Below, in pieces: positions 5,448 to 39,446 of a stretch of 64,000 nucleotides of DNA; the first letter of the stretch is position 1; every line of letters begins with the position of its first letter. The position numbers and the translations under genes are program-made. Where the stretch lies: IMG/VR virus record IMGVR_UViG_3300029134_000184; one strand, written 5' to 3'. Source of the DNA: a virus. The notes beneath the pieces are model-generated. The model saw only the letters and a program-made list of their open reading frames with translations, was not told where the DNA came from and made no database searches.

Positions 5448-5536
5448 GTTGCCATTTTTTGTTATTACGGCTGCTCCAGCATATTAATTTATGTCAAAGA
5501 AATACTAACTATAACAACAGAAAGGAACTGGTGATA

Positions 5537-6340
5537 ATGGGAGAGAAACAACAGCCAAAATCTTGTATTTATCCAAAGCCTGAGCATTATAACGACCTGG
5601 CAGATAAGCCGATAACGAAAGATGGAATAATGGACAATGCCATTGAAATCATTTATATCTGTGCTTATAAAGCTGAAAGATTCGTCAACAAGCAATATGT
5701 GGGGGTGTCGGTTGAAAGCCGTGAAGACATCATCCAGTATGTAGCTGGCCAGATTAAGGATTTGATTGAAAACTATCTTGACAAAATTGACGAAAAAAGG
5801 GTTGATTTTTGGGCTTATATGAACAAAAGCATTCAGTATACCGCAAGCAGAGCTTATCAGACTGAAGTTAAAGATGGTGCGTCCGAATACATTCGGCACC
5901 GATACGACATGATGTCCAAATATCTCGATGAAGGGTTAACGCTGGAAGAGATTGCAGAGAAGTGTAACTGCAGGGTGTCTACGGTAAGGAAAACCCTTAG
6001 GGATGGAAAGGCAATAAATGTGAGTATCGACGCGGAGGACGATATCGGACATGCCATTCTTGATAAAGTAGGTAAAAATGATGTGTATAAGATTGAAGAA
6101 GAGGAAAAAGTATCAATCGAAGATAACATCTTAATCCGAAAGGTTCTTAAAGGTATGACAAGGGAAGAAAAGTTCATTATAGAAACTTACCTTAATATCA
6201 AAAAGGACTGTGAAAAAGAATGGAAAGACAGAACGTTTGCAGCTTGTAAGGAGTATGGCATTACTCATAAAAAAGTGAATGATGCAATCAGAAGCTTTAA
6301 AAATGAGGCCAGAAAAATGCGTAATGAGCCTTCTGGATAA
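5537..6340 (+). CDS. putative sigma-70-family (region 2/region 4) transcription factor
   Basis: C-terminal HTH LTLEEIAEKCNCRVSTVRKTL resembles sigma region 4. An upstream helical region resembles region 2. Preceded by the element-specific promoter motif at ~5476. Confidence 0.4.
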   Translation: MGEKQQPKSCIYPKPEHYNDLADKPITKDGIMDNAIEIIYICAYKAERFVNKQYVGVSVESREDIIQYVAGQIKDLIENYLDKIDEKRVDFWAYMNKSIQYTASRAYQTEVKDGASEYIRHRYDMMSKYLDEGLTLEEIAEKCNCRVSTVRKTLRDGKAINVSIDAEDDIGHAILDKVGKNDVYKIEEEEKVSIEDNILIRKVLKGMTREEKFIIETYLNIKKDCEKEWKDRTFAACKEYGITHKKVNDAIRSFKNEARKMRNEPSG

Positions 6341-6461
6341 TACAAGGTTTTGGCTTGTACAAAAACCTATAACAACACATGAGCAGCGGGGAAAACCTGC
6401 TGTTTATTTTTTGCCTGATTTTGCATATTGAAAACAAATACAAAAACAGGAGGGAAAAATA

Positions 6462-7514
6462 ATGAAAAATTTAAAAAAATCTGTTTTATGCATGCTAATG
6501 GCAGTTGTCATGGTGATGACTGTAACAGCTGCAAGCGTCATTCCGGTTCAGGATGTGTATGCGGCATCTGTGAAGCTGAATAAGACTTCACTTAACCTGT
6601 ACACGAGGACTATGATTCAGCTTACTGTATTAAATACAGGAGCAAAAGCCAAATGGTCATCAAGCAAACCGAAGGTTGCAAGCGTGACAAGTGAAGGTTA
6701 TGTCACTGCCCGCTCTGCAGGAAAAGCAAAGATTACCGCAGTTGTTGGCAAAAAAAAGCTGTACTGCAATGTCACCGTCAATGTTAAACCTGGCGAAGAA
6801 GTGAAGATGGAGTTTAAAGATTGTAAAGTTCAGGTTGGAAAAACTACACGTCTCCGCCTGATGAACATTGTCGGCCTCGCTTCATGGAAAAGTAGCAATA
6901 CAAAAATTGCTACTGTAGACGCGAATGGAGATGTAACAGGAAGAAAAACCGGTTCTGCGACAATCACTGCTACATATCACTGCAAAAGATATACTGCAAA
7001 AGTGACTGTTATATCCGGTACAACGTCTGGAACGTCAGTTATCAGAAGGAAAGCTCCTTTGGCTGACAGCGGTGTGCTGAATGCGTTTGACAAGCTTGGC
7101 TTTAAATATGCTTATGACCCGAATATTACTGGGTTCACAGGCAAATTTTCAGCAAAAGAGCATCGCATCATTGTAAGACGCGAAGAAGATGACTGTATCT
7201 ATCATGAGCTTGGTCATTTTGTAGCATGGGTAGCTGGCGATGTTGACTACAAGAAAGAATGGAAAGCGATTTATGACAAAGAGAAAAGCAAAGTTACATA
7301 TTTCAATAAAGGTTATGCAACACAAAATCCTAAGGAATATTTCGCAGATGCATATAAGGATTATATCCTGCATCGTTCTTCACTGTCTTCAACAAGACCT
7401 TTGACATACAAGTATGTTAAGGCTGCAGTCTCAAAAGTCAATGCAATGACGAGTACTAACTTTGAAAGAATGCATAAGCTGTATGACTCTATGTGGAATA
7501 AATATGGTGCTTAA
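6462..7514 (+). CDS. secreted protein: signal peptide, two Big_2 Ig-like domains, C-terminal HExxH zinc metalloprotease (anthrax lethal factor / PPEP-like)
   Basis: Signal peptide MKNLKKSVLCMLMAVVMVMTVTAASV. Two repeats of the Big_2 pattern (KPKVASVTSEGYVTARSAGKAKITA..). YHELGHFVAW plus downstream EYFADAY is typical of the ATLF-like family. Confidence 0.7.
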   Translation: MKNLKKSVLCMLMAVVMVMTVTAASVIPVQDVYAASVKLNKTSLNLYTRTMIQLTVLNTGAKAKWSSSKPKVASVTSEGYVTARSAGKAKITAVVGKKKLYCNVTVNVKPGEEVKMEFKDCKVQVGKTTRLRLMNIVGLASWKSSNTKIATVDANGDVTGRKTGSATITATYHCKRYTAKVTVISGTTSGTSVIRRKAPLADSGVLNAFDKLGFKYAYDPNITGFTGKFSAKEHRIIVRREEDDCIYHELGHFVAWVAGDVDYKKEWKAIYDKEKSKVTYFNKGYATQNPKEYFADAYKDYILHRSSLSSTRPLTYKYVKAAVSKVNAMTSTNFERMHKLYDSMWNKYGA

Positions 7515-7608
7515 ATTTCTTCAGCAGGCTTCGGCCTGCTTTTTTCGTTTTTGGAAAATTTAGCATATTAAATACGTAAATGTTAAAACCAAGAAAGGAG
7601 ATTTTCAA

Positions 7609-8580
7609 ATGAAGATTAAAGAAATCAAAACAAACGGAATTGGAACTGTTGAGGGTGTTGTCATTGCTTTAGAAGAAAAGGCAAATAAAAATAACAGCAG
7701 CTTTATCAACATGACTGTCAGTGATGGCGAAACTCAGGTTGTCGCCAAGGTATGGAACGCAGACCTTGAAACGTTTAAATTTAAAACAGGGCAGGCGGTT
7801 CTTGTGGAATTAAAAATGGAGGAGTATAAAGGACAGAAAAGTTATGTCGCCCGTGAAATTACGGCATCTTCTGCTGACCCGGCACTGTTTATCTGCGGCG
7901 CTCCGGTAAAATCAGAAGAGATGTATAACTTCCTCTATAAAACCGCTGGAAGATGCGGCGTGTATGCGTCAACGGTCAAGAAGATTCTTGATGACAATAA
8001 AGACCATCTGATGTTCTGGGGCGCTGGCAAAGCAGTGCATCATAATATCAGAGGCGGTCTTTTATATCATACATACCGTATGACAAAAACGGCGGCATAT
8101 ATCACCTCTGTATATAACAAAGAGCCGTCAATGCTGAAAGGCTGTCGTGACATCAACACAGAACTTCTTGTTGCCGGCTGTATCCTGCATGACATCGGAA
8201 AACTTTGGGAGCTTGATACAAATGAATTTGGTGCTTCAGATTATACCGTGAAGGGAAACCTGATGGGGCATTCATTTATTGGCGCCGAGCTTGCGGGCAA
8301 GACCGCCAGAGAGCTTGGTGTAGATGAGGAAAATGTGATGCTTCTGCAGCATGTAATCCTGTCTCATCATGGAAAATATGAATGGGGTGCTGTCACCCTT
8401 CCGGCAATCCCGGAAGCTATGATTTTGCATCATATTGATATGATTGATGCCGATATGTATCAGTTTGAATCACAGGCAGAAGCCTTAAAACCAGGTGAAG
8501 CGACAAGCAATCTGATTTTTGGCTTAGACCAGAAAGTTTATAGACCGACATGGAGGGTTCCGGTGGAAGAAAAGAAGTAA
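7609..8580 (+). CDS. yhaM: YhaM-like 3'-5' exoribonuclease (N-terminal OB fold + HD phosphohydrolase domain)
   Basis: OB-fold N-terminus, then the HD motif (ILHDIGK ... LSHHGKYEWG ... HHIDMIDA). Confidence 0.7.
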   Translation: MKIKEIKTNGIGTVEGVVIALEEKANKNNSSFINMTVSDGETQVVAKVWNADLETFKFKTGQAVLVELKMEEYKGQKSYVAREITASSADPALFICGAPVKSEEMYNFLYKTAGRCGVYASTVKKILDDNKDHLMFWGAGKAVHHNIRGGLLYHTYRMTKTAAYITSVYNKEPSMLKGCRDINTELLVAGCILHDIGKLWELDTNEFGASDYTVKGNLMGHSFIGAELAGKTARELGVDEENVMLLQHVILSHHGKYEWGAVTLPAIPEAMILHHIDMIDADMYQFESQAEALKPGEATSNLIFGLDQKVYRPTWRVPVEEKK

Positions 8581-8628
8581 GGTGTTTGTTTAACTTTAGA
8601 TTTTTTTTCGGATTTTATTTTTGTATTG

Positions 8629-8654
8629 CCCGCAGCGAATGCTGCGGGTTTTTT
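8629..8654 (+). terminator. rho-independent terminator
   Basis: CCCGCAGCGAATGCTGCGGG + TTTTTT. Confidence 0.6.
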
Positions 8655-8742
8655 ATGATAGCAAGCGTGAATCCTCGGTAATTAAAAAGGTAATGGATGC
8701 CGGCAGGATTGCCGAGAATAAAAAAAGCAAAAAGAGCAGGAA

Positions 8743-8778
8743 AATGATTTCCTGCTCTGTGTTTTTTTGTCTTGCAAT
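8743..8778. terminator. bidirectional terminator between convergent genes
   Basis: AGAGCAGGAAAATGATTTCCTGCTCT hairpin flanked by A-run upstream and T-run downstream. Confidence 0.55.
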
Positions 8779-8793
8779 TTCGATATTCAGTTT

Positions 8794-9635
8794 TTAGTTT
8801 GATTCTTTTTTGGAATCGATTTCGGATTTGATTTCTTTAACGTACGCTTCGTTCAGCTCAGTCTCTTTTGCAATTTCTTCGACTGATAAACCATGATTAA
8901 GTAATATGCCAATATACTTTAAATCTGCTTCACGCCTAGTCTCTTCTAGCATTGAATACATCTTATCCACTCCTTTCGGGTTAAATTTGTAGTATCTTAA
9001 TGCTTCAGCGAAAACTGGATTTTTAATGTCATCAGGGTTTGGGTTAGTCCAATCTCTGATAAACTGTCCAAGTTCTGAATTATCAGTTTCAGCTGCAAGG
9101 TTTACAATAATTTCTTCTTCACCTGATTCAACAGTATTGCCAGACATTAAGTCTACTTTTTTAATATGCTGAATCATTGGGTCTTTGGAATTAAAATCCT
9201 TTTCTGTTAAGACTATCATACACCTTTTTGGTATTTCTGAGAAGTCTTGCCCTACTTTTAAGCTGTCTGTATCAATCATAGAACCATAATAACGGTTTCT
9301 GTAATAAATATTTTTTTGCCAATAACATTGTGGCTCAATGATATATATAGTATTTTCCTCGGGGCAATATGCAATAAAGTCTATAACGATATTGCGTCCA
9401 CCATTCCAATTCTTTACGGAATATTGGACTTTAATAAGCTCCAGGTGAACTTTTGCTTTCTTCTTTTTACCTTTATTGATTGCATTACGAACAATATTAA
9501 TGATTTCTTCTGCAACCTCCTCTTTCTTTAATACCATGCTGGACATGATGTCCGCATTTAATGACAATGCCATTAATTTTTCTTGAAAATCTTGAGGATA
9601 TTTTCCTCCTTTCATGGATATTTTTTCTTTTTCCA
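8794..9635 (-). CDS. Rpn/YhgA-like PD-(D/E)XK nuclease (transposase_31 / TIGR01784 family)
   Basis: N-terminal KGGKYPQDF. Core D..E.Q pattern (NIVIDFIAY ... IYIIEPQCYWQK) typical of the Rpn/YhgA-like family. Start set at MEKEKISMKGG with RBS AAAGAGGAG. One of only three - strand genes. Confidence 0.5.
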
Positions 9636-9839
9636 TTTGCTTTTTCGCTCCTCTTTTTATATATTTTTTTGCAAAAAAAAGGAGATAAACATAATATGAT
9701 ATGCAAGACAAACTATCATTCTGAATCTCCTTTCTTTATCTTTTTTTGCATATTTAATATGATATTTTTGATGATTCTGAAAAACTAAACTATTTTGCAT
9801 ATTGTATTTAATAAATACAAAACGACAGGAGGCAAAAAT

Positions 9840-10154
9840 ATGTACAAAGGAAAAGAAAATTATGAAACCGTTAAACACCTGATGGCAGGCGAAGAATGTA
9901 TTGTAACCGGATATGGCCAGTCCATGACTCCAATTCTGAAATCTGGGCAGTCCGTAAGATGTATTCCAGTGACTGAAAAAACAGCGCTGAAGAAAAACGA
10001 TATAGTGCTGTGCAAGGTTGCAGGACATTTTTACCTGCATAAGATTTCTGCAATAAAGGGTGGAAAGACATTTCAGATTTCTAACAATCACGGACATGTA
10101 AACGGATGGATTGGAAAGAAGTGTATATACGGTTTGGTAGTTGAAAAATTTTGA
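9840..10154 (+). CDS. S24-family (LexA/UmuD-like) peptidase domain protein
   Basis: GQSMTPIL motif (Ser nucleophile). Downstream Lys in HKISAIKGGK. Phage promoter motif TTGCATATTGTATTT at ~9797. RBS GGAGG. Confidence 0.5.
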   Translation: MYKGKENYETVKHLMAGEECIVTGYGQSMTPILKSGQSVRCIPVTEKTALKKNDIVLCKVAGHFYLHKISAIKGGKTFQISNNHGHVNGWIGKKCIYGLVVEKF

Positions 10155-10308
10155 GATTTTGCAGGAGCGAAGGCTCCTTTTTTTGTGGTTTTTTTAATAT
10201 TTTTTTTGTTTTTTGTGGTTTTTATCGAGAAATTGTTTTTGCATATTAAAAGTGTTAATTAAATTAAAATCTTGTATGCCGGCTTACCGGCAAGAAAGGA
10301 TGGATAAC

Positions 10309-10677
10309 ATGAAAAAAATTACAAACAAGAAATACGAAGCAATCATTCAGGCAAAGAACATCATTTCACAGTTATGCGAGGATGGAGCAATGGATTATGT
10401 TGAGAGTGGTGTTGACGTTGTTCGTAATACCTGTCTGATGAAGGCTCCGGCCTTATTGAAGGAAGCTCTGTTAACAGTGCTGACATCCGGAACTATTAGC
10501 GATAATGGTTTTCAGATGCCTGCTACAGCGTGCTGCTGCGAAAATTTCGCAGTAGTCCGGAAGCAGATGAAGAGGCATTCCCTGAGCCTTCTGGTCTGCG
10601 ACCCACTGGATAAAAGAGCAGACGAAGACGGGTATTTCACAATGCCAGTCTTTGGACAGGTCTTTATTGAGAAATGA
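10309..10677 (+). CDS. hypothetical protein
   Basis: ORF with RBS AAAGGA. Cys-rich C-terminal half. No recognisable family. Confidence 0.45.
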   Translation: MKKITNKKYEAIIQAKNIISQLCEDGAMDYVESGVDVVRNTCLMKAPALLKEALLTVLTSGTISDNGFQMPATACCCENFAVVRKQMKRHSLSLLVCDPLDKRADEDGYFTMPVFGQVFIEK

Positions 10678-10896
10678 TTTTTTGGCCTTCAGAGCAATCT
10701 GGAGGCTTTTTTATCGTGATTTATTTTTTGCATACTATAAATAACAAAACTTATATCTGATAAAGAACGGAAAAAACATGGTTGAAATTTTCGTTCTATT
10801 CCCCTTGCAGCGAAAACTGGGGCGCTGATTTTTTGATAGATTAACTTCCTCTTTTCAGTTCTGCCAAGCAGAACGATGACATAATTTCCTCCTATT

Positions 10897-10930
10897 AAAA
10901 AAACAGACATCTTTGATGTCTGTTTTTTTG
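10897..10930. terminator. bidirectional rho-independent terminator
   Basis: AAAAAAACAGACATCTTTGATGTCTGTTTTTTT. Confidence 0.7.
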
Positions 10931-10932
10931 TT

Positions 10933-11865
10933 CTAATTCTTTAAACTATTCTGAACCCTTTTAACATAAGCAGCTATATGCGGGGCTGTCTGCTCAAGAC
11001 CGTCCGGGTCTTCCAAGCTTAACCTGAAAGCCTCTGCAAAATATTCTGCATTATTGCATATATTCTCATCTTCCAAGTCGTATTTCTGTTGTAAGGCTGT
11101 TGCCTCCGATTCGTGTGATTGGGTGACTACGTTAGAGTCAGAACGCCCGGTAGCTGATACCTGGAAATCTACCGCATGTCCGAGCTCGTGGTAGATGGTA
11201 TCTTTAAGGCTTACGGCATCACATCTGAGATACATTTTCCTTTCATCAATTCCTCCTCCAGATTGTATGTATGTCAGGCCATTGACAACCATTCCTTCAT
11301 CCATGTCAGCGGTTGACTCACCTTCCAGATAAGCGGCGGGATTGTTGCACATACAGATTTCATAACTTTGTAAAATCTGAATGTATTGGTCATCAAGCGT
11401 ATTGAAGATATCTGTGGCAAGTCCGATATACAGATTGCATGCATCGGTTTCACCAAAGATGTTGAAATTGTATTTCTGCGTTTTGCACAAATACCCATTG
11501 TATACGTATCCGAGATTCGTGTAAGACCATTCATCTCCATCATTTCCAAGTATGCTTATTGATTCGCCCTTTTTGTATGTTCCGACAATCGGGCTGTTCG
11601 CATCGGCTGACTGATGGATGTTGAGGTCAGTGACCGTGTAACAGATACCCTCCGGCGGGTCTGGCTTTGTGTTGTAAAGCGATAGGTCTTCAACCGGTGC
11701 GGGCGTTTGTTCGGTTGTCTGTTCCGGTGCTGCCGGCTGCTCCTCAACTATCTGCTGCCCGGAGTCTGAAATTCTCAGGTCTGGCAGGTCTGCCGTTGCA
11801 AATGCCGGTATATTAGTTGTTAAAATTGCTGCTGTTAAAGCAGCAAGTGTAAGTATCTTTTTCAT
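10933..11865 (-). CDS. secreted HExxH zinc metalloprotease (anthrax lethal factor / Pro-Pro endopeptidase-like)
   Basis: Signal peptide MKKILTLAALTAAILTTNIPAFA. TIYHELGHAVDF ... NAEYFAEAF. Paralogue of the C-terminal domain of 6462..7514. RBS AAAAGGAGG. Confidence 0.7.
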   Translation of the reverse strand: MKKILTLAALTAAILTTNIPAFATADLPDLRISDSGQQIVEEQPAAPEQTTEQTPAPVEDLSLYNTKPDPPEGICYTVTDLNIHQSADANSPIVGTYKKGESISILGNDGDEWSYTNLGYVYNGYLCKTQKYNFNIFGETDACNLYIGLATDIFNTLDDQYIQILQSYEICMCNNPAAYLEGESTADMDEGMVVNGLTYIQSGGGIDERKMYLRCDAVSLKDTIYHELGHAVDFQVSATGRSDSNVVTQSHESEATALQQKYDLEDENICNNAEYFAEAFRLSLEDPDGLEQTAPHIAAYVKRVQNSLKN

Positions 11866-11966
11866 TTCTTTCCTCCTTTTGCTGCATATACAATATGCAA
11901 AAAATCCGCAAAAATTTGACAATTTTAAAAACGGCTGTTAAATTAAAAGAAAAAGGAGGTAAGAAT

Positions 11967-12419
11967 ATGTGTCGTGCCGTTTCGTATAATGCAGATGCCT
12001 GCTGCAGAAAGCTATATTCATCTTACAGCTCCGCAAATACACCGAGAAGAGCAAAAATAAGCCTTAAAGAAAGCCATATAATGATTCGCGCCCTGCAGGT
12101 AAAAATAGCAAGAAAAGAAGACAAAAAATATTCCCTTGATGAAAAGGTCGTGCCGTTCATCGGGTTTGAGGAAGCAGAGTTTGTGAAATCCATGAAAAGG
12201 TCAAAGATAGATAAAAAAATAGTTTTGGAGGCAAGAAAAAAAAGTACAAAAAATGAAGAGATAAAAAGGTTATGCTCCGCCTTGACAAAACTGCAGAATC
12301 AGCCTGATTGCAGTTATGAATTATGTACGGCATTGTATGATGCCCGGCTGATGATGGGGTCGCTGCAGAGAAGACTGAAAGATGATGAAGATAAAGATGA
12401 AGATATACCGTTTAACTAG
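11967..12419 (+). CDS. hypothetical protein
   Basis: ORF with RBS AAAGGAGG. Basic N-terminus, acidic C-terminus. Confidence 0.45.
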   Translation: MCRAVSYNADACCRKLYSSYSSANTPRRAKISLKESHIMIRALQVKIARKEDKKYSLDEKVVPFIGFEEAEFVKSMKRSKIDKKIVLEARKKSTKNEEIKRLCSALTKLQNQPDCSYELCTALYDARLMMGSLQRRLKDDEDKDEDIPFN

Positions 12420-12496
12420 GCGCCGGATTTTCCGGCGTTATTTTTTTTGCAAAAATCCGGCATATTGGAAGTGTAAAAATTTTTTGAGAAATTTGC

Positions 12497-12660
12497 CGTC
12501 GCATCCTTGTGACTTTGATAACTCATCGGCTACGCCGAATTCGTTACCAGATTTCAATAGTCATGAGTTAGACGGCTCTGCTTTTTAAATACATAAAAAT
12601 ATCGTTTATGCTTGCTCTGGTAACGAGTCGGCAACGGCGAGTTATCACGACGTTTTATTT
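12497..12660. repeat. intergenic long imperfect hairpin element (copy A of a repeat family)
   Basis: Left arm GATAACTCATCGGCTACGCCGAATTCGTTACC pairs with right arm GGTAACGAGTCGGCAACGGCGAGTTATC. The ~95-bp core is repeated at 39357..39446 with 3 mismatches. Related arms at 26765..26830 and 42368..42400. Confidence 0.5.
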
Positions 12661-12740
12661 CTCTACATTTCGGTGTAGAGAAATTTTTTATTTTCACAAA
12701 TTTTTTTTTGCAAAAAACCGTCCCATTCCTAATTTTTTCA

Positions 12741-12755
12741 GCATATTAAATATGC
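12741..12755 (+). promoter_or_regulatory. element-specific promoter motif (perfect palindrome GCATATTAAATATGC)
   Basis: One of >45 copies of GCATATTRWATRT located 25-45 nt upstream of start codons. Confidence 0.5.
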
Positions 12756-12797
12756 AAGAAATTTAAATACAAATTTTTACAAAAGGAGGTGTCTTGT

Positions 12798-14168
12798 ATG
12801 GAAATCACTTCAAGTTATCAAATAGAAATCTTATCAAATACGGATATGAAAAACACAGTGCAGATTTACCGCAAGGCACTTGCTTTTGTTATCGATGTAT
12901 GTGATAAAGAATGGGGAAACATTTCTGTTCTCGGTGGCACAAAAGAAAAAGACCACTATGTGGAGAAATTAATCCATCCAACCAAAAGCAATCCAAACCC
13001 TAAATATCCATTTGATATCAAGGGGTCAGAGTTTTATAAATTTCCATCATATCTCAAAAGAGCGGTTATTGCTGAAGCAATCGGTGCTGTAAGCAGCTAC
13101 CACAGTAATTATAAGAACTGGGAAGATAATGGAAAGAAGGGAAAGGCTCCAGCGTTACAGGTAGACAGGCATGCAATGCCGGTGTTCTACAACCAGAACA
13201 TGTACAAGGAAGACGCACCTAAAAATGCCAAATATCCAAAAGACATGAATCCAGGCGACAGCAATATCAGATGGTTAAAGTTATATCAGAATAACGACTG
13301 GGTGTGGGTTCCTGTCAGATTAAGAAAAACTGATATTAATTATATCAATAAATACTGGGGAGCATGTGAAGATAAAAGCGCCCCGGCCTTAGAAAAAATA
13401 CATAACAAATACTACCTGAGATTTTCTTTTACGGAAACCGTAATTTTAAGCGATACACCTATTGCAGAACAGATTATCTGTGCAGTAGACCTTGGAATCA
13501 ATACGGACGCAGTATGCAGCATAATGAAAGCAGATGGAACTATCCTTGCAAGAAAGTTTATCGATTTTACAAGTGACAAAGACCGGATGATTCATGCTAT
13601 GAACAGAACACGCCGTAAGCAGTCCAAGTATGGGCCAAAAAGTGCCAAAAGCCTTTGGGCTTATGTAAAACGCTTAAACGAAGACCGTGCAAAGAAAATA
13701 TCAGCGGCAATCGTAGAATTTGCATCCCAGCATTCCGTAGATGCTATCGTAATGGAGCATCTGGACTTCAAGGGATGCAAGAAACGGGGCAGTAAGGCGC
13801 AGAGATTGTCTATGTGGAATCACGGAATCATCCGTGAGAAGGTAGAGCAAAAAGCGCACCTCCTCGGTATAAGGATTGCGACAATCTGTGCATGGAAAAC
13901 AAGCGCTCTTGCTTTTGATGGAAGTGGAAGCGTTGCCAGAGATGATAATAACCATGCACTTGCAGCGTTCACGACAGGTAAACAGTATAACTGCGACCTG
14001 AGCGCCAGCTACAATATCGGCGCCAGATATTTTATCCGTGAACTCCTTAAATCTCTTCCGGCGACGGAAGAGTCCCGCGTAAAGGCAAAAGTTCCTGACG
14101 CTGGGCGTAGAACCTCCTGTACATTATCAACACTGCGGGCGCTTGTAAAAGAGCTTTCCGCAGCATAG
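12798..14168 (+). CDS. TnpB-like RuvC nuclease with degenerate (cysteine-less) zinc-finger region
   Basis: RuvC-I ICAVDLGINTDAV, RuvC-II AIVMEHLDFKG, RuvC-III YNCDLSASYNIGARYF. The TSQTCxxCG zinc-finger position reads TSALAFDGSG with no Cys pairs. Confidence 0.7.
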   Translation: MEITSSYQIEILSNTDMKNTVQIYRKALAFVIDVCDKEWGNISVLGGTKEKDHYVEKLIHPTKSNPNPKYPFDIKGSEFYKFPSYLKRAVIAEAIGAVSSYHSNYKNWEDNGKKGKAPALQVDRHAMPVFYNQNMYKEDAPKNAKYPKDMNPGDSNIRWLKLYQNNDWVWVPVRLRKTDINYINKYWGACEDKSAPALEKIHNKYYLRFSFTETVILSDTPIAEQIICAVDLGINTDAVCSIMKADGTILARKFIDFTSDKDRMIHAMNRTRRKQSKYGPKSAKSLWAYVKRLNEDRAKKISAAIVEFASQHSVDAIVMEHLDFKGCKKRGSKAQRLSMWNHGIIREKVEQKAHLLGIRIATICAWKTSALAFDGSGSVARDDNNHALAAFTTGKQYNCDLSASYNIGARYFIRELLKSLPATEESRVKAKVPDAGRRTSCTLSTLRALVKELSAA

Positions 14169-14375
14169 AAATGTATTTGCCCACCTGTCTATGTTCTAGT
14201 TTTCGTGTGGGTCTCTGTTTCGTCAGATTCAGAGATTCAGTATCCTCCTGGGTACTCTAACTAAGCTTAAACCGTATTCAGAGACAGGGCGCTTTACCGA
14301 TTAAAAAGGTAGAGGGGGCATGACACATTACTTGAAGCACGTGACTTAAGTCATGTGAGGTTCACAGAGGAAAAA
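14169..14375 (+). ncRNA. candidate guide/omega-RNA region of the TnpB-like gene
   Basis: ORF-free stretch 3' of the nuclease gene with internal complementarity (GTCTCTG..CAGAGAC; palindrome TGACTTAAGTCA). By analogy only. Confidence 0.2.
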
Positions 14376-14379
14376 GAAA

Positions 14380-15624
14380 ATGCAAAAATTTGATGAAGTT
14401 GCAGTAATTCGCGGGATAAAGAATTGGGAAGAGGCAGAATTTTTGCTGGGATTCTTGAGGTTTTCCGGGATTTCGACTGTGGAATATGTGTACAACGATT
14501 TGTTTGATGGATTCAATAAATATATTAAAAAGAGCAAAAACAAGTTTGACGCTGTTCTATATATAAACGATTCTGGCAGCAGATATCTTCGCTGGTTTGA
14601 AAATCTTGGTGTGGCTAATATACAGCTTGATTTTTCTGGAGCCGGGGAGTTGGCAGGAATGTTAAAAGATATCTTTTCGGAAGTGTATCTCGTGGAGCAG
14701 GCAGAACATGAAGGGGAGCTTCGGCCGATTCAGGTTGATGCCGGAGAAGAAAAGGCTGAAAAAAATAAAGAAAGTAGTATGTTCGCTGACGCGCTTGTCG
14801 TTTTTGGCGTGCTGGCTGATGTGTATTGCAAAAATGGATTGGCGGATGAAATTGGAAACGGCAAAAAATATTCGCCGCGGGAAAAGTTTAACCGCTGGCT
14901 GACCCCTGATGAGGTTGATGAGATTACAAGGAGGATTGAGATATGGAAGCATGCATTGTCTGGCCTGGAAGATGCTGGAGAGCTGAAATGCTTTGGGGCT
15001 GAACATATTTCTTATGCGAAGCTTTTCTGCAAAAAAGAAATTTTCTGTCTGGAACGTATGGTTGGTAAACAATCTTATACCATTTCAGATATAACCGGAA
15101 AAGCCGAAACCCTGGCGGTAAAATCCACGATGCCGGCGGCAAAAGAGATTCAGGCTGAACTATATGAGTGGTCTGATGTGGACTCGCTGTCGGTTGTAAT
15201 ACAACACGAAGCTGTGGAGAAATACAGGGTTGATGCGTGTAAGAGCGAAGCGCTGTTCAGACTTGGAGTCTTATATAAAAAACAGGGAAAAAGCGAGCAG
15301 GCAGAATGTATGTTTGAACGGGCGTTTAAGTGTAATTCTGTAAATTTTAAAGCTATTTTTTCAATCGCCATGCATGCACTGCAGAATGGAAGGTATGATG
15401 AGGCGGAGACGTGGCTGAAAAATATGTTATGCATTCTGCAATTAGACGTTAACAACAATGCGGTATGCGAAGGGAATCTGAAGCTTTTAACGCCGAAAGA
15501 ACTGGCGTATGCCAAAAAATGCTATGCCAATCTGTATAAGATTGCCTGCCGCAAAAATGATGACAATAATTTGTACTACAAAGCAATGAAAGAAAAAGCT
15601 GAAGGCGCGTTTCCGTATTCTTAA
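14380..15624 (+). CDS. hypothetical protein with C-terminal TPR-like repeats
   Basis: C-terminal helical repeats (EALFRLGVLYKKQGKSEQAECMFERAFK ... YDEAETWLKNM). RBS GAGGAAAAAG. Confidence 0.5.
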   Translation: MQKFDEVAVIRGIKNWEEAEFLLGFLRFSGISTVEYVYNDLFDGFNKYIKKSKNKFDAVLYINDSGSRYLRWFENLGVANIQLDFSGAGELAGMLKDIFSEVYLVEQAEHEGELRPIQVDAGEEKAEKNKESSMFADALVVFGVLADVYCKNGLADEIGNGKKYSPREKFNRWLTPDEVDEITRRIEIWKHALSGLEDAGELKCFGAEHISYAKLFCKKEIFCLERMVGKQSYTISDITGKAETLAVKSTMPAAKEIQAELYEWSDVDSLSVVIQHEAVEKYRVDACKSEALFRLGVLYKKQGKSEQAECMFERAFKCNSVNFKAIFSIAMHALQNGRYDEAETWLKNMLCILQLDVNNNAVCEGNLKLLTPKELAYAKKCYANLYKIACRKNDDNNLYYKAMKEKAEGAFPYS

Positions 15625-15825
15625 AAATTCAGCATATTAAATATAGCAAAAGGCACCAGGGCTTTTCGTCGAGGGTGTCTTTTTTTTACCACAAGTACAA
15701 AAAAAATCAAAAAGGAGATGCAAAAATGCGAAATATTATGCAGCCGGATTTCCGGCATATTGAAGATGTAAACAAAGTTTCAAAAGAAACTACAAAAATA
15801 AGAAAGGAAAACAGGAGGTAACAAT

Positions 15826-18800
15826 ATGGATATTAGAACAGAAGAAAGATATGAAGACGATTTTAATCAGGGCAATTTATTCATCATGAAACGTTCAGGA
15901 GAAAGAGTCCCGTTTGATGAAAGTAAAATCGTGAGGGCTATTGAAAAGGCAAATGCCGAGGTAACAATCCCTCTTGAAAAGATGAGTGAGGAAAAGATTG
16001 AAGAAATTGCAGCTCAGATTAAGCGTGATGCAGAAAATGCAGGCAGAGACCTGTCAGTGGAGGAAATCCAGGATAAAGTGGAAGACTCACTGATGATTGC
16101 CGGATACTGCACGCTGGCAAGATTATATATCACTTACAGATATAAACATAACCTTGACAGAAAGAAATCTACACTTGATAAGAAGATTGAAAGCCTTATC
16201 AATGTGAAAGTTAACAAAGACGGCAGCGTAAGCGGCAGCAATGAGGAGGTAAACCAGGAAAACAGCAATAAGGACACAAAAGTACTTTCAGTACAGCGTG
16301 ACTATATGGCTGGTGAGTGGTCAAGGGAGTATACAAGTAGAAACCTGCTTCCGGAAGATGTGGTGAATGCACACCGAAGCGGTCTGATTCATGTACATGA
16401 TACGGATTATATGGCCCAGCCGGAAGGAAACTGCTGTCTCATTAATCTTGAAGACATGCTGCAGAATGAAACCTGTATTTCTGGTACTAAGATTGAAAGG
16501 CCGAAGTCATTCATGACTGCTTCAACCGTTGCAAGCCAAATTATCGCTCAGGTTGCCAGCAGCCAGTATGGCGGTCAGACAATCAGCCTGGCACATCTCG
16601 CTCCGTTCGTTGACATATCAAGACAGAAGATTTTAAAGAGGCTGTCAAAAGAAATGTCCGATATTGGCATTGAAGTAACCGAAGAAAAATTAAAAGAACT
16701 CGCTGAAAAAGAAGTAAGAAAAGAAGTTGAGAATGGCTGTCAGACATTGCAGTATCAACTTATCACTTTACAGACAACAAATGGACAGGCTCCTTTTGTG
16801 ACTGTGTTCATGTATCTGAATGAGGCAAAAAATGAGAGGGAAAAAGAAGACCTGGCGCTTTTGATTGAAGTAATGTTTAAACAGAGAATGCTTGGCGTTA
16901 AGGATAGCAGTGGTTATTATATCACTCCGGCTTTCCCGAAACTGATTTACTGCCTGCAGGAAGATAATATCAGTGAAGATGGTAAATACTGGTATCTGAC
17001 AGAGCTTGCAGCAAAATGTACTGCCAAGAGAATGGTTCCGGATTATATTTCTGAAAAGAAGATGCTGGAGCTTAAAGGGGATGTGTACCCCAGCATGGGA
17101 TGCGTTGATGGAAAAGAAGTTGTAACATATAAATACAACGGAAAAGTCTATGTTGAAGCATTTGAAAGAATGTGGAATAGATTAGGAAAATACTTTGAAA
17201 TCAATCTGCAGGAAAATGGAAAAGACTATGTGATGAAAACCCCTGGCGTTATGATTTATGACCAGTGTAAGGGATTCGTTGATAACTACGGAATTATCAA
17301 AAACCATAATTCCGAATGGCTGCGGATAAGTTTCTCTAACGGAAGGACTATTACTTGTACTAAAGACCATCCATTTGAGACTTGTGACAATCGGGTTGTA
17401 TATGCAAAAGATTTGAAAGAATCAGATTTGATTGCAATTGATAAAACATCCGATTTTGCACCTGAATACACTTATTCCATGAAGACAAATCGTGCATGGC
17501 TTTATGGCTTTACGTTATGTGATTCTACTTATTATGACAGCATCATTGCCTCAATTGCACAGGATGGTGAACAGGAAATCAAAGATATGTTTGTCAATAC
17601 TATCAAAAGCGAATATGGACTTGATGTAACAGATACGGAGAGACACAGAGGAGTTAGAGGTAATTATATTGACTTACTTGTTAATTCTGATGGTACTAAT
17701 ACATACCGTAATCTCAGACTTGATTTGGCATGCTCTTTTGAGGGTAAAGCTAAAAACGACAGGCATATTCCAAATGAAGTTTTTTCCTGGACAAAAGAAG
17801 CAAAGCTTGCATTTTTGGCAGGAATGATTGATGCTGACGGTTATCTTAGTACACATATGAAAAAGGCAAAAATGCTAATTGGCTCAACAAACAAGGAGCT
17901 TGCCATTCAGCAGATGCTTTTAGCACAGTCTTGCGGAATGTTTGCTGTGATTTATCCGAATCGTTATAAAACAAACAGAAGGGATAAAATCAGATATCGT
18001 GTTGAATTCACACCAACTGAAGAGCTGCTGACATTTATCCAGTGTGAGAAGAAAGTAGCTCTGCATGATTCAATCCTTGGAAATACAAATGCAAGCATCG
18101 CGTCTGAGTCAACATGTCATATTACAAAAGTTGAAGAGATAAATGAAGAAGGCTTTAGTTATGATGTTACAACCGCAAGCGAACATTTTACAGTTTCAGG
18201 ACTTTATAGTCATAACTGCAGAAGTTTCCTTACTCCTGACAGATGCAGCGAGAAGGTTGGAAATATCGCTCATGCCCTTAATTATGAAGAGGGTAAGCAT
18301 AAATATTACGGCCGCTTCAATCAGGGTGTTGTAACAATCAATCTTATTGATGTTGCATGCTCATCAGAAGGCGATGAGGACAGGTTCTGGAAAATCCTTG
18401 AAGAGAGACTTAACTTATGCCATAAAGCACTTCGTGCAAAACATGAAAGGCTGCTTGGAACACCGTCAGATGTGGCACCGATTCAGTGGCAGTACGGAGC
18501 ACTTGCAAGGTTAAAACCTGGCGAAGTAATTGACCCGCTGCTGTTCAACGGATATTCAACTATTTCTCTTGGATATGCCGGTTTGGCTGAATGCGTGTAC
18601 TTCATGAAGCATGAATCTCATACTTCTGAAAACGGAAAAGAGTTTGGCTTGAAAGTTATGCAGGCGCTGAATGATGCCTGTGGTAAATGGAAAACAGAAG
18701 AAAATATTGATTATTCTGTATATGGTACCCCGTTGGAATCGACAACGTATAAATTTGCAAAATGTCTGCAGAAACGTTTTGGTAAAATCCCGGGAGTGAC

Positions 18801-19284
18801 AGACAAGAATTATATTACAAATTCCTATCATATCAGAGTAACAGAAAATATCAATGCTTTTGACAAGCTGACAAAAGAAGCAGAGTTCCAGAAACTGTCT
18901 CCTGGCGGGGCAATCTCATATGTTGAGGTGCCTAATATGCAGGGAAACATTCCGGCGGTTCTTGCAATCATCAAACATATCTACAATACAATTCTTTATG
19001 CTGAACTGAATACAAAGTCAGACCAGTGTGAGGCTTGTGGATATAATGGAGAAATCCAGATTGTGAACAAAGACGGCAAGCTGATTTGGCGCTGCCCGCA
19101 GTGCGGATGTACAGACCAGAACAAGATGCACGTTGCCAGAAGGACTTGTGGATATATCGGAACGCAGTATTGGAACCAGGGAAGGACTCAGGAAATCGCA
19201 GAACGTGTATTACACGTATCTGTTGATGAAGATGAATCTGAACAGAAACCAGTAAAAATACTGCCAAAATGTGTTGTTGCTTAA
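15826..19284 (+). CDS. nrdD: anaerobic ribonucleoside-triphosphate reductase NrdD (class III), interrupted by an intein
   Basis: ATP-cone N-terminus. C-terminal zinc ribbon CEACGY...CPQCGC and glycyl-radical motif RTCGYIG. The extein junction PSMG|C...SHN|CRSFL matches the conserved NrdD MGCRSFL block. Confidence 0.9.
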   Translation: MDIRTEERYEDDFNQGNLFIMKRSGERVPFDESKIVRAIEKANAEVTIPLEKMSEEKIEEIAAQIKRDAENAGRDLSVEEIQDKVEDSLMIAGYCTLARLYITYRYKHNLDRKKSTLDKKIESLINVKVNKDGSVSGSNEEVNQENSNKDTKVLSVQRDYMAGEWSREYTSRNLLPEDVVNAHRSGLIHVHDTDYMAQPEGNCCLINLEDMLQNETCISGTKIERPKSFMTASTVASQIIAQVASSQYGGQTISLAHLAPFVDISRQKILKRLSKEMSDIGIEVTEEKLKELAEKEVRKEVENGCQTLQYQLITLQTTNGQAPFVTVFMYLNEAKNEREKEDLALLIEVMFKQRMLGVKDSSGYYITPAFPKLIYCLQEDNISEDGKYWYLTELAAKCTAKRMVPDYISEKKMLELKGDVYPSMGCVDGKEVVTYKYNGKVYVEAFERMWNRLGKYFEINLQENGKDYVMKTPGVMIYDQCKGFVDNYGIIKNHNSEWLRISFSNGRTITCTKDHPFETCDNRVVYAKDLKESDLIAIDKTSDFAPEYTYSMKTNRAWLYGFTLCDSTYYDSIIASIAQDGEQEIKDMFVNTIKSEYGLDVTDTERHRGVRGNYIDLLVNSDGTNTYRNLRLDLACSFEGKAKNDRHIPNEVFSWTKEAKLAFLAGMIDADGYLSTHMKKAKMLIGSTNKELAIQQMLLAQSCGMFAVIYPNRYKTNRRDKIRYRVEFTPTEELLTFIQCEKKVALHDSILGNTNASIASESTCHITKVEEINEEGFSYDVTTASEHFTVSGLYSHNCRSFLTPDRCSEKVGNIAHALNYEEGKHKYYGRFNQGVVTINLIDVACSSEGDEDRFWKILEERLNLCHKALRAKHERLLGTPSDVAPIQWQYGALARLKPGEVIDPLLFNGYSTISLGYAGLAECVYFMKHESHTSENGKEFGLKVMQALNDACGKWKTEENIDYSVYGTPLESTTYKFAKCLQKRFGKIPGVTDKNYITNSYHIRVTENINAFDKLTKEAEFQKLSPGGAISYVEVPNMQGNIPAVLAIIKHIYNTILYAELNTKSDQCEACGYNGEIQIVNKDGKLIWRCPQCGCTDQNKMHVARRTCGYIGTQYWNQGRTQEIAERVLHVSVDEDESEQKPVKILPKCVVA
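17101..18216 (+). mobile_element. intein with LAGLIDADG homing-endonuclease domain inside nrdD
   Basis: Begins with Cys (CVDGKEVV) and ends SHN before extein Cys. Two LAGLIDADG blocks (LYGFTLCDSTYY, LAGMIDADGYLS). Confidence 0.8.
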
Positions 19285-19377
19285 ATCAAGTGGTGCAGGC
19301 TTACGCCTGCATCACTTTTGTATGCAGAAAAATCCTGCATATTAAAGATACAAAAAATCAAGAAAGGAAGAAAAATT

Positions 19378-19917
19378 ATGAATTACGGTAAAATTATATA
19401 TTGTGATACAGCAAACGGAATCGGCTGCAGGACTGTTCTTTTTGTTTCAGGCTGCACGCATCACTGCAAGGGGTGCTTTAATGATATGGCCTGGCCATTC
19501 GATTATGGAAAAGAATACACAAAAGAAACAGAAAACAAGATTCTTGAGTCTTTAAAACCTGATTACATAAGAGGGTTGTCTATTCTTGGCGGTGAACCGA
19601 TGGAACCAGAGAATCAGGCGGAAGTCTGGAACCTTATAAAAAGAGTCAGAAAAGAATTGCCAAAAAAAGATATCTGGGTATATTCCGGATATCTGTGGGA
19701 AGAGCTGACCGGAAAAGAAAAAGCGAGATGCAGGCAGGGAATGGCTGACAGAATCAGGCTGGATAACATCCTGCAGAATATTGATGTTCTGGTTGATGGT
19801 GAATTCCAGGAAGATAAAAAAAATATCATGCTTGAATTTCGCGGAAGCGAAAACCAGAGGGTGATTGACGTTAAGAAGACGCTGGAGACTGGTGAAGTTA
19901 TATTGCTGAAATTGTAA
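19378..19917 (+). CDS. nrdG: anaerobic RNR activating protein NrdG (radical SAM)
   Basis: CTHHCKGC radical-SAM cluster motif. N-terminal ANGIGCRTVLFVSGC. Immediately downstream of nrdD. Phage promoter motif at 19337..19350. Confidence 0.85.
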   Translation: MNYGKIIYCDTANGIGCRTVLFVSGCTHHCKGCFNDMAWPFDYGKEYTKETENKILESLKPDYIRGLSILGGEPMEPENQAEVWNLIKRVRKELPKKDIWVYSGYLWEELTGKEKARCRQGMADRIRLDNILQNIDVLVDGEFQEDKKNIMLEFRGSENQRVIDVKKTLETGEVILLKL

Positions 19918-20113
19918 GATTGGCCGCGCGGAGGAAATCCGGGCGGCACTTTTTGCGATGATATAAATTAAGCATATTGAATCATTGTTGGAATATCTTA
20001 TGTTCTTGGAAGTCTACGAAACATGTGACACAAATGACAGTGCCGGATACTTTCTTGCTAATGCGTTTAAGCATCGAGAAGCAGTAATAAAATAGAGTAT
20101 AATTATCAACATT

Positions 20114-20147
20114 GTCCACTGAAGAAATTCGGTGGACTTTTTTTGTT
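20114..20147 (+). terminator. rho-independent terminator
   Basis: GTCCACTGAAGAAATTCGGTGGAC + TTTTTTT. Confidence 0.65.
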
Positions 20148-20342
20148 CAGAAACAAAATTTTTCTGTACATTGTAAAAAAGCGGTGCTCCTCTACCGAAA
20201 AACGAGGCCTAAAAAAGACAACGGAGAGATGCCTGCAGAAATGCGAAGTAAGGACAGACGGAGAGGCCTGTTCTTCCTAATGGGGGAGCGTAATAGGTAC
20301 CCACAAATTCCAGATTCTTTCATATTCTGGGCGCTGCTCAAA

Positions 20343-20382
20343 ATAAGAAGCCAGTGAAAAAACCTGCGGGCTTCTGTTTTTT
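20343..20382 (+). terminator. rho-independent terminator
   Basis: GAAGCCAGTGAAAAAACCTGCGGGCTTC + TTTTTTTT. Confidence 0.6.
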
Positions 20383-20451
20383 TTCGTATGGAAAATATAG
20401 CATATTAAGATTGTAAACGATAAAATAAGAAACAAGAAAGGAGCAAAAAAT

Positions 20452-21639
20452 ATGCTTGAATTAAAAGGAAAATACAATACCGCAAAGGTTTTTACTGACA
20501 ATGTCGACAACGAGACCATCAGCCAGGTAATAGAACTGCTGAATCAGGACTATATCAAAGACGCGAAAATCAGAATCATGCCTGACTGCCATGCGGGCGC
20601 CGGATGCGTCATTGGGACGACAATGACAATTTCTGATAAAGTATGCCCGAATCTGGTTGGTGTAGATATTGGCTGCGGCATGCTGGCTGTCAGGATTGCA
20701 GAGAAAGACGTTGACCTTCCAAAACTGGATGATGTAATTAATGCATACGTTCCGGCTGGGTTCAACGTTAATGAAGAACCGCTTGGCAATTTCAGCCATT
20801 TGAAGGACTTGGTCGCTCCGGCTGATATATCGCTGGCTTATTGCAGCATTGGAAGACTGGGAGGCGGCAATCATTTTATCGAACTTGATAAAGATGATGA
20901 CGGAAACTTGTGGCTTGTAATCCATACTGGTTCCAGACATCTCGGACTGGAAGTTGCGAAACACTACCAAGAGCTCGCATACAAACAGCTGAAAGATTCA
21001 GATGTTGGCGATAAAATCAAGGCTGTAATTGCAGACCCGAAAGCAAAAGGAAGGAAAAAAGAAATTGAAAAAACAATCCAGGCGTTAAAGATGCACGAGC
21101 CGCATATTCCGAAATCCTTATGCTATGTTTCCGGCCAGGCATTCAAAGACTACATCCACGATATGGAAATTGTCCAGAAGCATGCAGAGTTAAACAGAAA
21201 ATATATTGCCGATACAATCATTGAGAAGATGGGCTGGCATATTTGCGAAGAATTCCAGACAATACACAATTACATTGATACAAAAAATTTGATTCTTCGC
21301 AAAGGTTCCGTGTCTGCACGAGATGGCGAAAAACTGATAATCCCGATAAATATGCGTGACGGGTCTTTGATTTGTATTGGAAAAGGCAATCCTGATTGGA
21401 ATTATTCTGCACCGCATGGTGCCGGAAGGATTTTGTCAAGAAGCGAAGCGAAAGATGCTGTTGGGATTGATGAGTTTCGTGAGTCCATGAAAGGAATATA
21501 TTCTTCTTCTGTAATGGAGTCTACGATAGATGAGTCGCCGATGGTGTATAAGCCGATGGAAGAAATTATGGAAAACATTAAAGACACTGTAGACATTGTG
21601 AAAGTAATTAAACCGGTATACAATTTTAAAGCACATTAG
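20452..21639 (+). CDS. rtcB: RtcB RNA 3'-phosphate ligase
   Basis: RtcB motifs RIMPDCHAGAGCVIG, GVDIGCGM, GGGNHFIEL. Phage promoter motif at 20400..20413. Confidence 0.9.
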   Translation: MLELKGKYNTAKVFTDNVDNETISQVIELLNQDYIKDAKIRIMPDCHAGAGCVIGTTMTISDKVCPNLVGVDIGCGMLAVRIAEKDVDLPKLDDVINAYVPAGFNVNEEPLGNFSHLKDLVAPADISLAYCSIGRLGGGNHFIELDKDDDGNLWLVIHTGSRHLGLEVAKHYQELAYKQLKDSDVGDKIKAVIADPKAKGRKKEIEKTIQALKMHEPHIPKSLCYVSGQAFKDYIHDMEIVQKHAELNRKYIADTIIEKMGWHICEEFQTIHNYIDTKNLILRKGSVSARDGEKLIIPINMRDGSLICIGKGNPDWNYSAPHGAGRILSRSEAKDAVGIDEFRESMKGIYSSSVMESTIDESPMVYKPMEEIMENIKDTVDIVKVIKPVYNFKAH

Positions 21640-21748
21640 AACACACCGCCTGGAGAAATCCAGGCGGTGTTTTATCAAACATGAATTCTCGCATATTAAA
21701 AATGTAATTAAAAGTTTTTAGAAAAAATAAAGATAGGAGAGCAAAACT

Positions 21749-22237
21749 ATGAGAACAGCAGATTTGGATTTTATAAAAGTAACAGAAGTTGGAGGAATAG
21801 TTCGTTACAGCAGTAAGTCACCGGAAGGTCTTTGCTATATACCGGGTGTCCGCATGGAGACAAAACAGGAAGCAATAAATCGTCTTGTAGATATTGCGGT
21901 GAACGGATGCGGAGGTGTAGTAAAATACACGGTTAATGGATGGGAGGAGGTTCCAACCGATAATTCTTTGACAGCCCAAAAGACCAGAATAGAGCAGGCT
22001 TTAGAAGACTTGCGGAGTTTAAAATGCGAAGAATATGTGGTCGTGAAAGCGACAGTAACAAAACTAAAAAAAATATACTCTGACCTAGAAAGAGAAGAAG
22101 CAATCGCAGAAGAAAAGAAAAAAGCAGAGCATATTGCTGATTTAAAAGCAAAACGCAAAGCAATTGAAGAAGAGGCTATTGCTGCCGGCTTTAACTCTTT
22201 GAATGATTACATACTTTACAAAGCTGTCAATGTGTAA
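21749..22237 (+). CDS. hypothetical protein
   Basis: ORF with RBS AGGAGAG. Coiled-coil C-terminus. Confidence 0.45.
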   Translation: MRTADLDFIKVTEVGGIVRYSSKSPEGLCYIPGVRMETKQEAINRLVDIAVNGCGGVVKYTVNGWEEVPTDNSLTAQKTRIEQALEDLRSLKCEEYVVVKATVTKLKKIYSDLEREEAIAEEKKKAEHIADLKAKRKAIEEEAIAAGFNSLNDYILYKAVNV

Positions 22238-26777: not shown

Positions 26778-26997
26778 TAACTCGCGCTTTGCGCTCGTTA
26801 CCAGCACGAAGTGCGGAGTAAGGCCGGAAGGCTGAACGAAGCATGTTTTAATTTTACTAACGACTTTTTGTCGGTTGAAGACTTTCCGCTCTTCGTTAAT
26901 TTTTAAATCAGGCCGGAATTTTTCCGGCCGTTTTTTTTGTCTTGAGATTTCCAGCATACTGAAAATATAGAAAAGAAAAAGAAAGGAGAAGACAAAA

Positions 26998-39356: not shown

Positions 39357-39446
39357 TTAGTCATGAGCTAGACGGCTCTACTTTTTAAGTACATAAAAAT
39401 ATCGTTTATGCTTGCTCTGGTAACGAGTCGGCAACGGCGAGTTATC
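39357..39446. repeat. copy B of the 12497..12660 intergenic repeat (right arm plus core only)
   Basis: ~95 bp, 3 mismatches to 12563..12652. The left arm is deleted. Confidence 0.55.

Follow-up and report, generated by a model that had tools for sequence, protein, structure and literature searches.

The 64,000-nt stretch of viral DNA held in IMG/VR as record IMGVR_UViG_3300029134_000184, called the window here at its full length, carries at 12489..14365 on the + strand a whole insertion sequence (IS) of the IS200/IS605 family. The element is 1877 bp long, tnpB-only, and IS1341-like, and its extent was set by the limits of homology with copies in other contexts. Its tnpB gene (12798..14168, +) encodes a 456-aa protein of the Pfam PF27142 'Aq_aa04' family that has no zinc finger, an assignment that draws on the open reading frame (ORF), homologues, profiles, an AlphaFold2 (AF2) model, and the ratio of nonsynonymous to synonymous substitution rates (dN/dS). 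Between the gene and the right end lies a structured tail, and upstream of the gene lie hairpin modules and a promoter-like motif. An earlier note on this DNA had singled out the gene as a TnpB-like RuvC nuclease that had lost its zinc finger and that could have been domesticated by its host element.

The tnpB gene and its product

The ORF runs on the + strand from a GTG at 12789 to 14168 with no frameshift and no internal stop. Homologues uniformly begin MEITSSYQ, and a AAGGAGGT ribosome-binding site (RBS) stands directly 5′ of the ATG at 12798, so we take this ATG as the true start of a 456-aa product. Profile searches bore out the identification as a TnpB: the NCBIfam model guided_TnpB aligned with residues 54-413 (E 2.7e-22), TIGR01766 was passed at 36.5 against a cut-off of 32, and a profile built from 13 homologues matched the solved TnpB 9nzp with E 1e-10. 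In the 9nzp alignment VDLG corresponds to RuvC-I, the glutamate of VMEHLD to RuvC-II, and the aspartate of NCDLSASYNIG to RuvC-III. The catalytic residues are thereby assigned to D231 (13488-13490), E320 (13755-13757), and D400 (13995-13997), all on the + strand; the same three residues align with the canonical TnpB of the same window, and each is at least 90% conserved in an alignment of 72 sequences. The earlier note had read all three RuvC motifs as intact, with their misassignment as the point to check, and its assignment of the motifs proved correct. The C-terminus of the product is complete and untruncated. Substitution patterns indicate that tnpB is under purifying selection, with dN/dS between element copies of 0.08-0.16. 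Pseudogenization was considered and ruled out, as stops and frameshifts are absent and dN/dS is close to 0.1.

A cysteine-free segment in place of the zinc finger

Where canonical proteins have TSQxCxxCG ... CxxCG...D, the window protein has TSALAFDGSG ... AAFTTGKQYNCD, with none of the four cysteines kept: the first is A372, the second is deleted (beside D374), the third is A390, and the fourth is T393. The cysteine-free segment that stands in place of the four-cysteine (C4) zinc finger (TSALAFDGSG...FTTGKQY; codons 368-397, 13899..13988, +) was placed by alignments and the AF2 model and is similar in length to the finger that was lost. For a survey of the motifs we searched 1.84 billion representatives of clusters at 50% identity and took the 96 sequences of at least 380 aa among the best 150 matches. 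TSxLAFDGSG ... FxxGKxYNxDLNASYNIGARYF was found in all of these except a few that are truncated or chimeric at that point, and CxxC...CxxC in none of them.

With the 72-sequence alignment, AF2 returned a model with a predicted local distance difference test score (pLDDT) of 93.5 and a predicted template modeling score of 0.83, in which residues ~365-400 are ordered and form short beta strands (mean pLDDT 91-96 in blocks of 10). Residues 368-403 had fallen below pLDDT 50 with a 13-sequence alignment, and the 72 sequences settle the region. A Foldseek search with the model recovered Cas12f and TnpB structures at probability 1.0, with template modeling scores (TM-scores) normalized to the target of 0.50-0.62. 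Full-length Cas12f and the TnpBs of ISFba1 and ISDra2 can each be overlaid on the model, which indicates that the WED, REC, and RuvC lobes are kept; structure prediction, the check proposed in the earlier note, thus places an ordered mini-domain at the zinc-finger site of an otherwise retained fold. As modeled, a cysteine-free, beta-rich mini-domain stands where the zinc-binding C4 knuckle would lie between RuvC-II and RuvC-III, an exchange that is family-wide and took place long ago. The alignments show the loss to be clean and old and not a product of decay, since about 95 representatives share the cysteine-free motifs and the gene evolves under the low dN/dS given above; the choice that the earlier note had left between clean loss and frameshift or pseudogenization therefore falls to the former.

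Element ends, copies, and mobility

Homology starts at TTGA[G/C/T/A] in every copy compared, namely those of the window, L041, L042, L043, L052, and Lachnospiraceae loci. Since it starts just past TTGAN in every context, the left end of the window copy is set at 12489, with TTGAG (12484..12488, +) directly 5′ of it. TTGAN may be read as a transposon-associated motif (TAM), by its likeness to the TTGAT of ISDra2. Close relatives occupy other sites (L041, L042, L043, and L052-L061, at 87-92% nucleotide identity) and those of L046-L051 encode an identical protein; homology with all of these stops exactly at 14365 (...CACGTGACTTAAGTCATGTGAGGTTCAC|), the right terminus being ...GAGGTTCAC. Identical or near-identical copies have at least seven unrelated right flanks between them, and the window-identical protein was found with three different right flanks. 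The coding sequences (CDSs) of L042 and L043, two contigs from one sample, are 100% identical in nucleotides. The window copy itself is flanked on the left by …TTTTTTGAG and on the right by AGAGGAAAAAG….

Hairpins that resemble each other at the left and right ends are a hallmark of IS200/IS605 elements. The right-end hairpin lies at 14338-14357, just inside the terminus, and differs by one loop base from that of the autonomous Lachnospiraceae elements. The left-end hairpin CTTGTGACTT.AGTCGTGAG resembles it; its arms, CTTGTGACTT (12506-12515) and AGTCATGAG (12559-12567), are split by a 43-nt insert in the window copy (12506..12567, +) and are contiguous in L042 and L043 (CTTGTGACTTCAGTCGTGAG), where they are again similar to the right-end hairpin. 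The right terminus (G)AGG..TTCAC is shared by members as far apart as those of gut Clostridia, cyanobacteria, and Pseudomonas, in the last two of which it stands a few bases past the stop codon, and TTCAC was present in 45 of 80 viral loci, in which the hairpin stems vary with compensation.

Many relatives have Y1_Tnp (Pfam, E 3e-40) adjoining tnpB. The Y1 TnpA is intact in L001, L004, L007, L008, L010, L014, and L032 and divergently oriented in L013, L017, L018, L024, L025, L031, and L038; in L001, a Lachnospiraceae relative, it occupies 2483-2998. In L005, L006, and L009 tnpA is visibly decayed, with fragments remaining between the left end and tnpB, and these three show the decay from an autonomous IS605-type element to a tnpB-only one within the family. 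The earlier note had seen no tnpA nearby, and there is none in the 64 kb, so the window copy is a tnpB-only IS1341-like derivative that would need mobilization in trans. The autonomous relatives in Lachnospiraceae are plausible donors of TnpA and would hint at the host.

Two further observations concern the ends. L046 and L047 have the same left flank as the window and an identical TnpB protein, with a different right flank directly after GAGGTTCAC, a difference that points to a rearrangement or loss of DNA at the IS or else to two IS copies having recombined. At 39358-39447 the window holds a 90-nt copy, 96.7% identical to the left-end interior of the IS (12558-12647), that has no tnpB and is preceded by the left-end-like AAATTTAGCTGTCGCAT; it may represent a remnant left end standing alone or a miniature form derived from the element.

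The 3′ tail as a candidate omega-RNA

From 14169 to 14365 (197 nt) the + strand is free of ORFs. This tail (14169..14365, +), which includes the right-end hairpin and the terminus, is a candidate omega-RNA scaffold by its conservation, fold, and covariation, and the 5′ end of that scaffold may lie inside the ORF. The tail folds at -65.7 kcal/mol (z -3.9) and is 94-95% identical between copies, the CDSs of the same copies being 86-92% identical with a synonymous divergence (dS) of 0.37-0.52. We aligned 16 tails, Lachnospiraceae ones among them, and RNAalifold resolved five helices with 31 pairs, 16 of which have compensatory double changes. Cells of the alignment were paired in 95.6% of cases, as against 27-43% with the partners slid, and the slid controls had only two to three pairs with double changes. 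Several invariant G-U pairs work only if the RNA is read from the + strand. Searches of the tail and of the left end against Rfam, both at gathering thresholds and with permissive settings, matched no known RNA family.

Past 14365 the copies diverge completely in seven contexts, and the 20 nt from 14366 to 14385 on the + strand, AGAGGAAAAAGAAAATGCAA, are the predicted guide, which is flanking DNA. It starts AGAGGAAAAAGAAAATGC... and shares bases with the RBS and ATG of the tetratricopeptide repeat gene that follows, and in each copy the putative guide is whatever DNA flanks the right end. The OMEGA model sets the guide directly outside the transposon end, as described in PMC10691335, and it is by analogy with this architecture that we assign a guide role to 14366-14385. 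The covarying tail and the sharp boundary between scaffold and flank together fit an omega-RNA whose guide begins at 14366. The suggestion of the earlier note that a self-complementary, ORF-free tail of about 200 bp could encode a guide RNA is thus consistent with a tail that is conserved, folded, covarying, and scaffold-like.

Left-end modules and a promoter-like motif

The region 12489-12700 forms a long hairpin (-36.2 kcal/mol as DNA, z -5.3) that comprises two hairpin modules. Module 1 (GGTAACGA...GAGTTATC; 12514..12552, -) occupies the left-end hairpin's loop and is missing there in L042, L043, and L052, and module 2 (12615..12649, +) has an exact copy at 39417-39446. The earlier note had described a long hairpin repeat element that flanks the nuclease upstream; the hairpin is real, but it consists of two inverted modules inside the left end and does not flank the element. 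The same module of about 30 nt, GGTAACGA-[inner stem]-GAGTTATC, occurs at 12517-12548 (-), 12619-12646 (+), 26776-26802 (-), and 39419-39446 (+), four copies in the window against none expected. It has a conserved 7-bp outer stem and a symmetric GA/GA internal loop, and its inner stem varies in sequence between copies with pairing kept. It is also present in the upstream regions of L041, L043, and L052, in further IS copies, and in the genomes that host them; candidate roles are a small mobile hairpin, an RNA processing site, or a protein-binding site.

A 12-bp stem-loop followed by a T-run (12657..12684, +), situated past the left end and ahead of the promoter-like motif, resembles a terminator, is kept in other copies, and may insulate tnpB from read-through transcription. 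The promoter-like motif, TTTTTCAGCATATTAAATATGCAAG (12734..12758, +), stands about 45 nt 5′ of the tnpB start codon and was recognized through the window-wide enrichment of its core GCATATTAAATAT. With its A/T-rich lead, the core has 16 matches in the window where 0.4 are expected, so the element promoter with a palindromic copy at 12741 that the earlier note had described is a real motif. Twelve matches are on the + strand (7563, 9748, 12741, 15632, 19337, 21691, 22539, 31749, 34071, 34942, 38735, and 58732), and the sites mostly lie 20-50 nt upstream of an RBS and ATG; the motif is probably the host element's own promoter class. It stands upstream of tnpB in all phage-borne copies and is not at that position in the bacterial copies L001-L040, among which the sole match is on the minus strand of L007, far from tnpB. 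The IS sublineage has therefore acquired the promoter-like signal of its host element, which is an adaptation to the viral host and not domestication.

Genomic context

The window matches the IMG/VR contig IMGVR_UViG_3300029091_000057, which also bears the IS, and relatives are found on contigs of 250-283 kb. Its genes, nearly all on the + strand, include those for SecY, NrdD with an intein, RtcB, sigma-like factors, an HNH endonuclease, a clamp-loader-like ATPase, and BspA-type leucine-rich repeat proteins, and the whole is in keeping with a large viral-like element of the gut. Unusual as phage cargo, on a contig that IMG/VR classes as viral, are the homologue of SecY at 3836-5152 (Pfam E 2.5e-83) and the RtcB RNA ligase at 20452-21639. 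The two sigma-like proteins are encoded at 5459-6340 and 56346-57359. An intein/LAGLIDADG insertion occupies 17104-18215 of nrdD (15826-19284) and is missing in the IMG/VR contig L044, which is otherwise 93-98% identical; the intein is thus polymorphic in the lineage. The other TnpB of the window (16-1485, 489 aa) has HTH_OrfB_IS605, OrfB_IS605, and TNB domains, CxxC...CxxC, and a DRD RuvC-III, and is only remotely related to the zinc-finger-less TnpB (hhalign probability 76%). As the earlier note had observed, no CRISPR array is near: none lies within 6000-22000, and there are no cas genes nearby.

Family size and likeness to known systems

Although scoring covered only 8,000 candidates, more than 5,313 clusters (90% identity) matched the tnpB family, and 476 representatives at 50% clustering had E <1e-30. 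Its hosts are Lachnospiraceae, Clostridium, cyanobacteria, and Pseudomonas/Halopseudomonas, often with several copies and often at contig ends, and 111 stretches of IMG/VR viral contigs were matched as well. Among GenBank phages, a megablast search with 11000-20000 gave one irrelevant match only, and tblastn gave one full-length match at 43% identity. The Pfam label PF27142 'Aq_aa04' is precomputed on close homologues, and it is through these that we place the window protein in that family, with which it shares the motifs TSxLAFDGSG and GKxYNxDLNASYNIGARYF; a literature search on 'aq_aa04' returned spurious matches only. One 616-aa homologue, P0026, has the region from RuvC-I to RuvC-II duplicated internally, which is either a true tandem duplication or an assembly artefact.

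The earlier note had held zinc-finger-less lineages to be rare, a view that the cluster count, the PF27142 entry, and published losses refute. The survey of Altae-Tran et al. 2023 (PMC10691335) states that the zinc finger was lost in large TnpB branches, treats it as dispensable there, suggests lineage-specific roles for it, and describes a virus-enriched, zinc-finger-less clade, RIIIr-4, with a D->H change in RuvC-III. Membership in RIIIr-4 was rejected. The C4 zinc finger is likewise absent in that clade, but the window protein and its family keep the RuvC-III aspartate (NCDLSASYNIG) where RIIIr-4 has histidine; by its sequence the PF27142 family is a zinc-finger-less branch other than RIIIr-4. 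Its NxDxN form of RuvC-III, in our reading, resembles the 'derived' NADXN class of the same article. The protein of a Cas12 'hacker' preprint carries a zinc finger and has no bearing on the family. The zinc-finger-less TnpB branch is thus already catalogued, and the window element adds one member to it.

Among characterized systems, the ISDra2/IS605-type TnpB OMEGA systems (8H1J, 8EXA, 8IAZ, 9NZP) have the same WED-REC-RuvC fold (TM-score normalized to target 0.50-0.57), the D-E-D triad, the same hairpin-bearing ends, a 3′ structured region that ends at the right end, and, in relatives of the window element, Y1 TnpA. They differ in having a C4 zinc finger, in sharing only ~14% identity with the window TnpB, which stays below curated hidden Markov model cut-offs, and in that the window copy has no TnpA and a scaffold tail almost wholly past the stop codon (197 nt). 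The best structural matches were to Cas12f (type V-F), similar in size, with AsCas12f at a TM-score normalized to target of 0.55-0.62; unlike Cas12f, the window gene lies inside transposon ends with no CRISPR array or cas genes nearby.

Discussion

We consider it probable that the locus is an intact, trans-mobilizable IS605-family element whose zinc-finger-less TnpB and 3′ omega-RNA would cut TTGAN-flanked empty sites and thereby keep and spread the element, and that, as part of the same explanation, the window protein is a TnpB-fold RNA-guided nuclease with the full WED-REC-RuvC architecture and predicted activity. The intact ends, the at least seven flanks, the identity of guide and flank, and the TnpA-bearing relatives make this the signature of a mobile OMEGA system and not of an immobilized exaptation. 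The IS lineage has probably colonized a group of large gut viral-like elements, the host of which is probably a member of the Lachnospiraceae. We infer RNA production, cleavage activity, the TAM, and mobilization in trans, and envisage that a promoter of the host-element type inside the IS would drive transcription of tnpB, and that the 3′ part of the transcript (~14169-14365 plus some 16-20 nt of flank) would be kept as omega-RNA. The complex of TnpB and omega-RNA would then recognize and cut the donor site when empty or excised, where TTGAN precedes the right-flank sequence, and recombination with an occupied copy would restore or spread the IS, a selfish retention or homing that might operate, for example, between co-infecting genomes. 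Transposition proper would need a Y1 TnpA in trans, likely from autonomous relatives in the (probably Lachnospiraceae) host.

Several observations weigh against this explanation. The guided_TnpB score of 79.6 bits is below the curated cut-off of 100, and the Pfam models OrfB_IS605 (E 0.16; 12.7 bits, cut-off 30.5) and Cas12f1-like_TNB (E 0.018; 15.6 bits, cut-off 26.3) match weakly. The window has no tnpA, and the 43-nt insert that splits the left-end hairpin might impair excision, a doubt that is offset by L041, which has the same split variant at another site. A search of viral and metagenome contigs for the two flanks of the window copy joined together recovered no empty site, and neither did one of metagenome contigs for the L052-type copy; searches with the two genes neighboring the IS recovered only IMGVR_UViG_3300029091_000057, itself a carrier. 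The covariation in the tail mostly separates two clades (4 vs 12 sequences), and the right-end hairpin doubles as a DNA signal for TnpA. A zinc-finger-less TnpB with demonstrated cleavage was not found in the literature, and cleavage here is a prediction.

The domestication suggested by the earlier note would mean that a phage or element had exapted TnpB with a fixed guide that serves the phage, against competitors or in regulation. It would accord with a window that has no tnpA, with a gene placed behind the host element's own promoter-like motif, and with a lineage confined to related viral-like contigs. Both IS ends are nonetheless intact, identical or near-identical copies occupy at least seven sites, the putative guide changes from copy to copy, being no more than the flank, and the catalytic triad and right terminus are as in mobile relatives, in many of which Y1 TnpA is retained. 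The exapted TnpBs known as TldRs are reported to be immobilized and nuclease-dead (PMC10705468); they too are TnpB derivatives missing a canonical feature, but they have lost RuvC residues and mobility, both of which the window TnpB keeps. These findings do not support the earlier suggestion, and we regard domestication as quite unlikely.

It is also unlikely that the copy is a recently immobilized relic whose ORF is intact, which cannot transpose, and which persists by TnpB-mediated retention or by chance. The module of 43 nt that breaks the left-end hairpin, the missing TnpA, and the finding that 89% of TnpB clusters appear immobile in the PNAS survey (PMC10691335) would be expected of such a relic, but the same left-end variant stands at another site in L041 and the window-identical protein has three different right flanks. 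Very improbable, in our assessment, is a reading in which losing the zinc finger ended the protein's role as a dsDNA nuclease and left it either an RNA-guided DNA binder or repressor or a protein with another substrate. The zinc-finger/TNB domain adjoins the RuvC site, the lineage-specific roles suggested for the zinc finger in the available part of PMC10691335 would allow such a change, and the nuclease activity of the family is predicted from its sequences. Against this, D231, E320, and D400 are at least 90% conserved in the family, the C-terminus is untruncated, and the family is multi-copy and TnpA-associated, as active TnpBs are.

The mobile, trans-mobilizable element that we favor is a well-delimited case, in which the ends, the TAM-like motif, the candidate omega-RNA, and the predicted guide are all directly testable. 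More tentatively, and with our judgment falling slightly short of even, the PF27142 branch may be an active zinc-free RNA-guided dsDNA nuclease that works through its cysteine-free TNB mini-domain, with a phage sublineage that has taken on a phage-type promoter and acts as a homing drive between co-infecting large gut phages. If true, this would provide a metal-independent compact TnpB scaffold and a natural instance of OMEGA-driven super-Mendelian spread in viruses. The window element leaves the current picture of OMEGA systems unchanged. It indicates that the C4 zinc finger is dispensable in a large, mobile, and strongly selected TnpB branch, and a zinc-independent TnpB is of possible interest to engineers of compact genome editors. 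Judging by the phage-adapted promoter, IS605 elements may be able to specialize on viral hosts.

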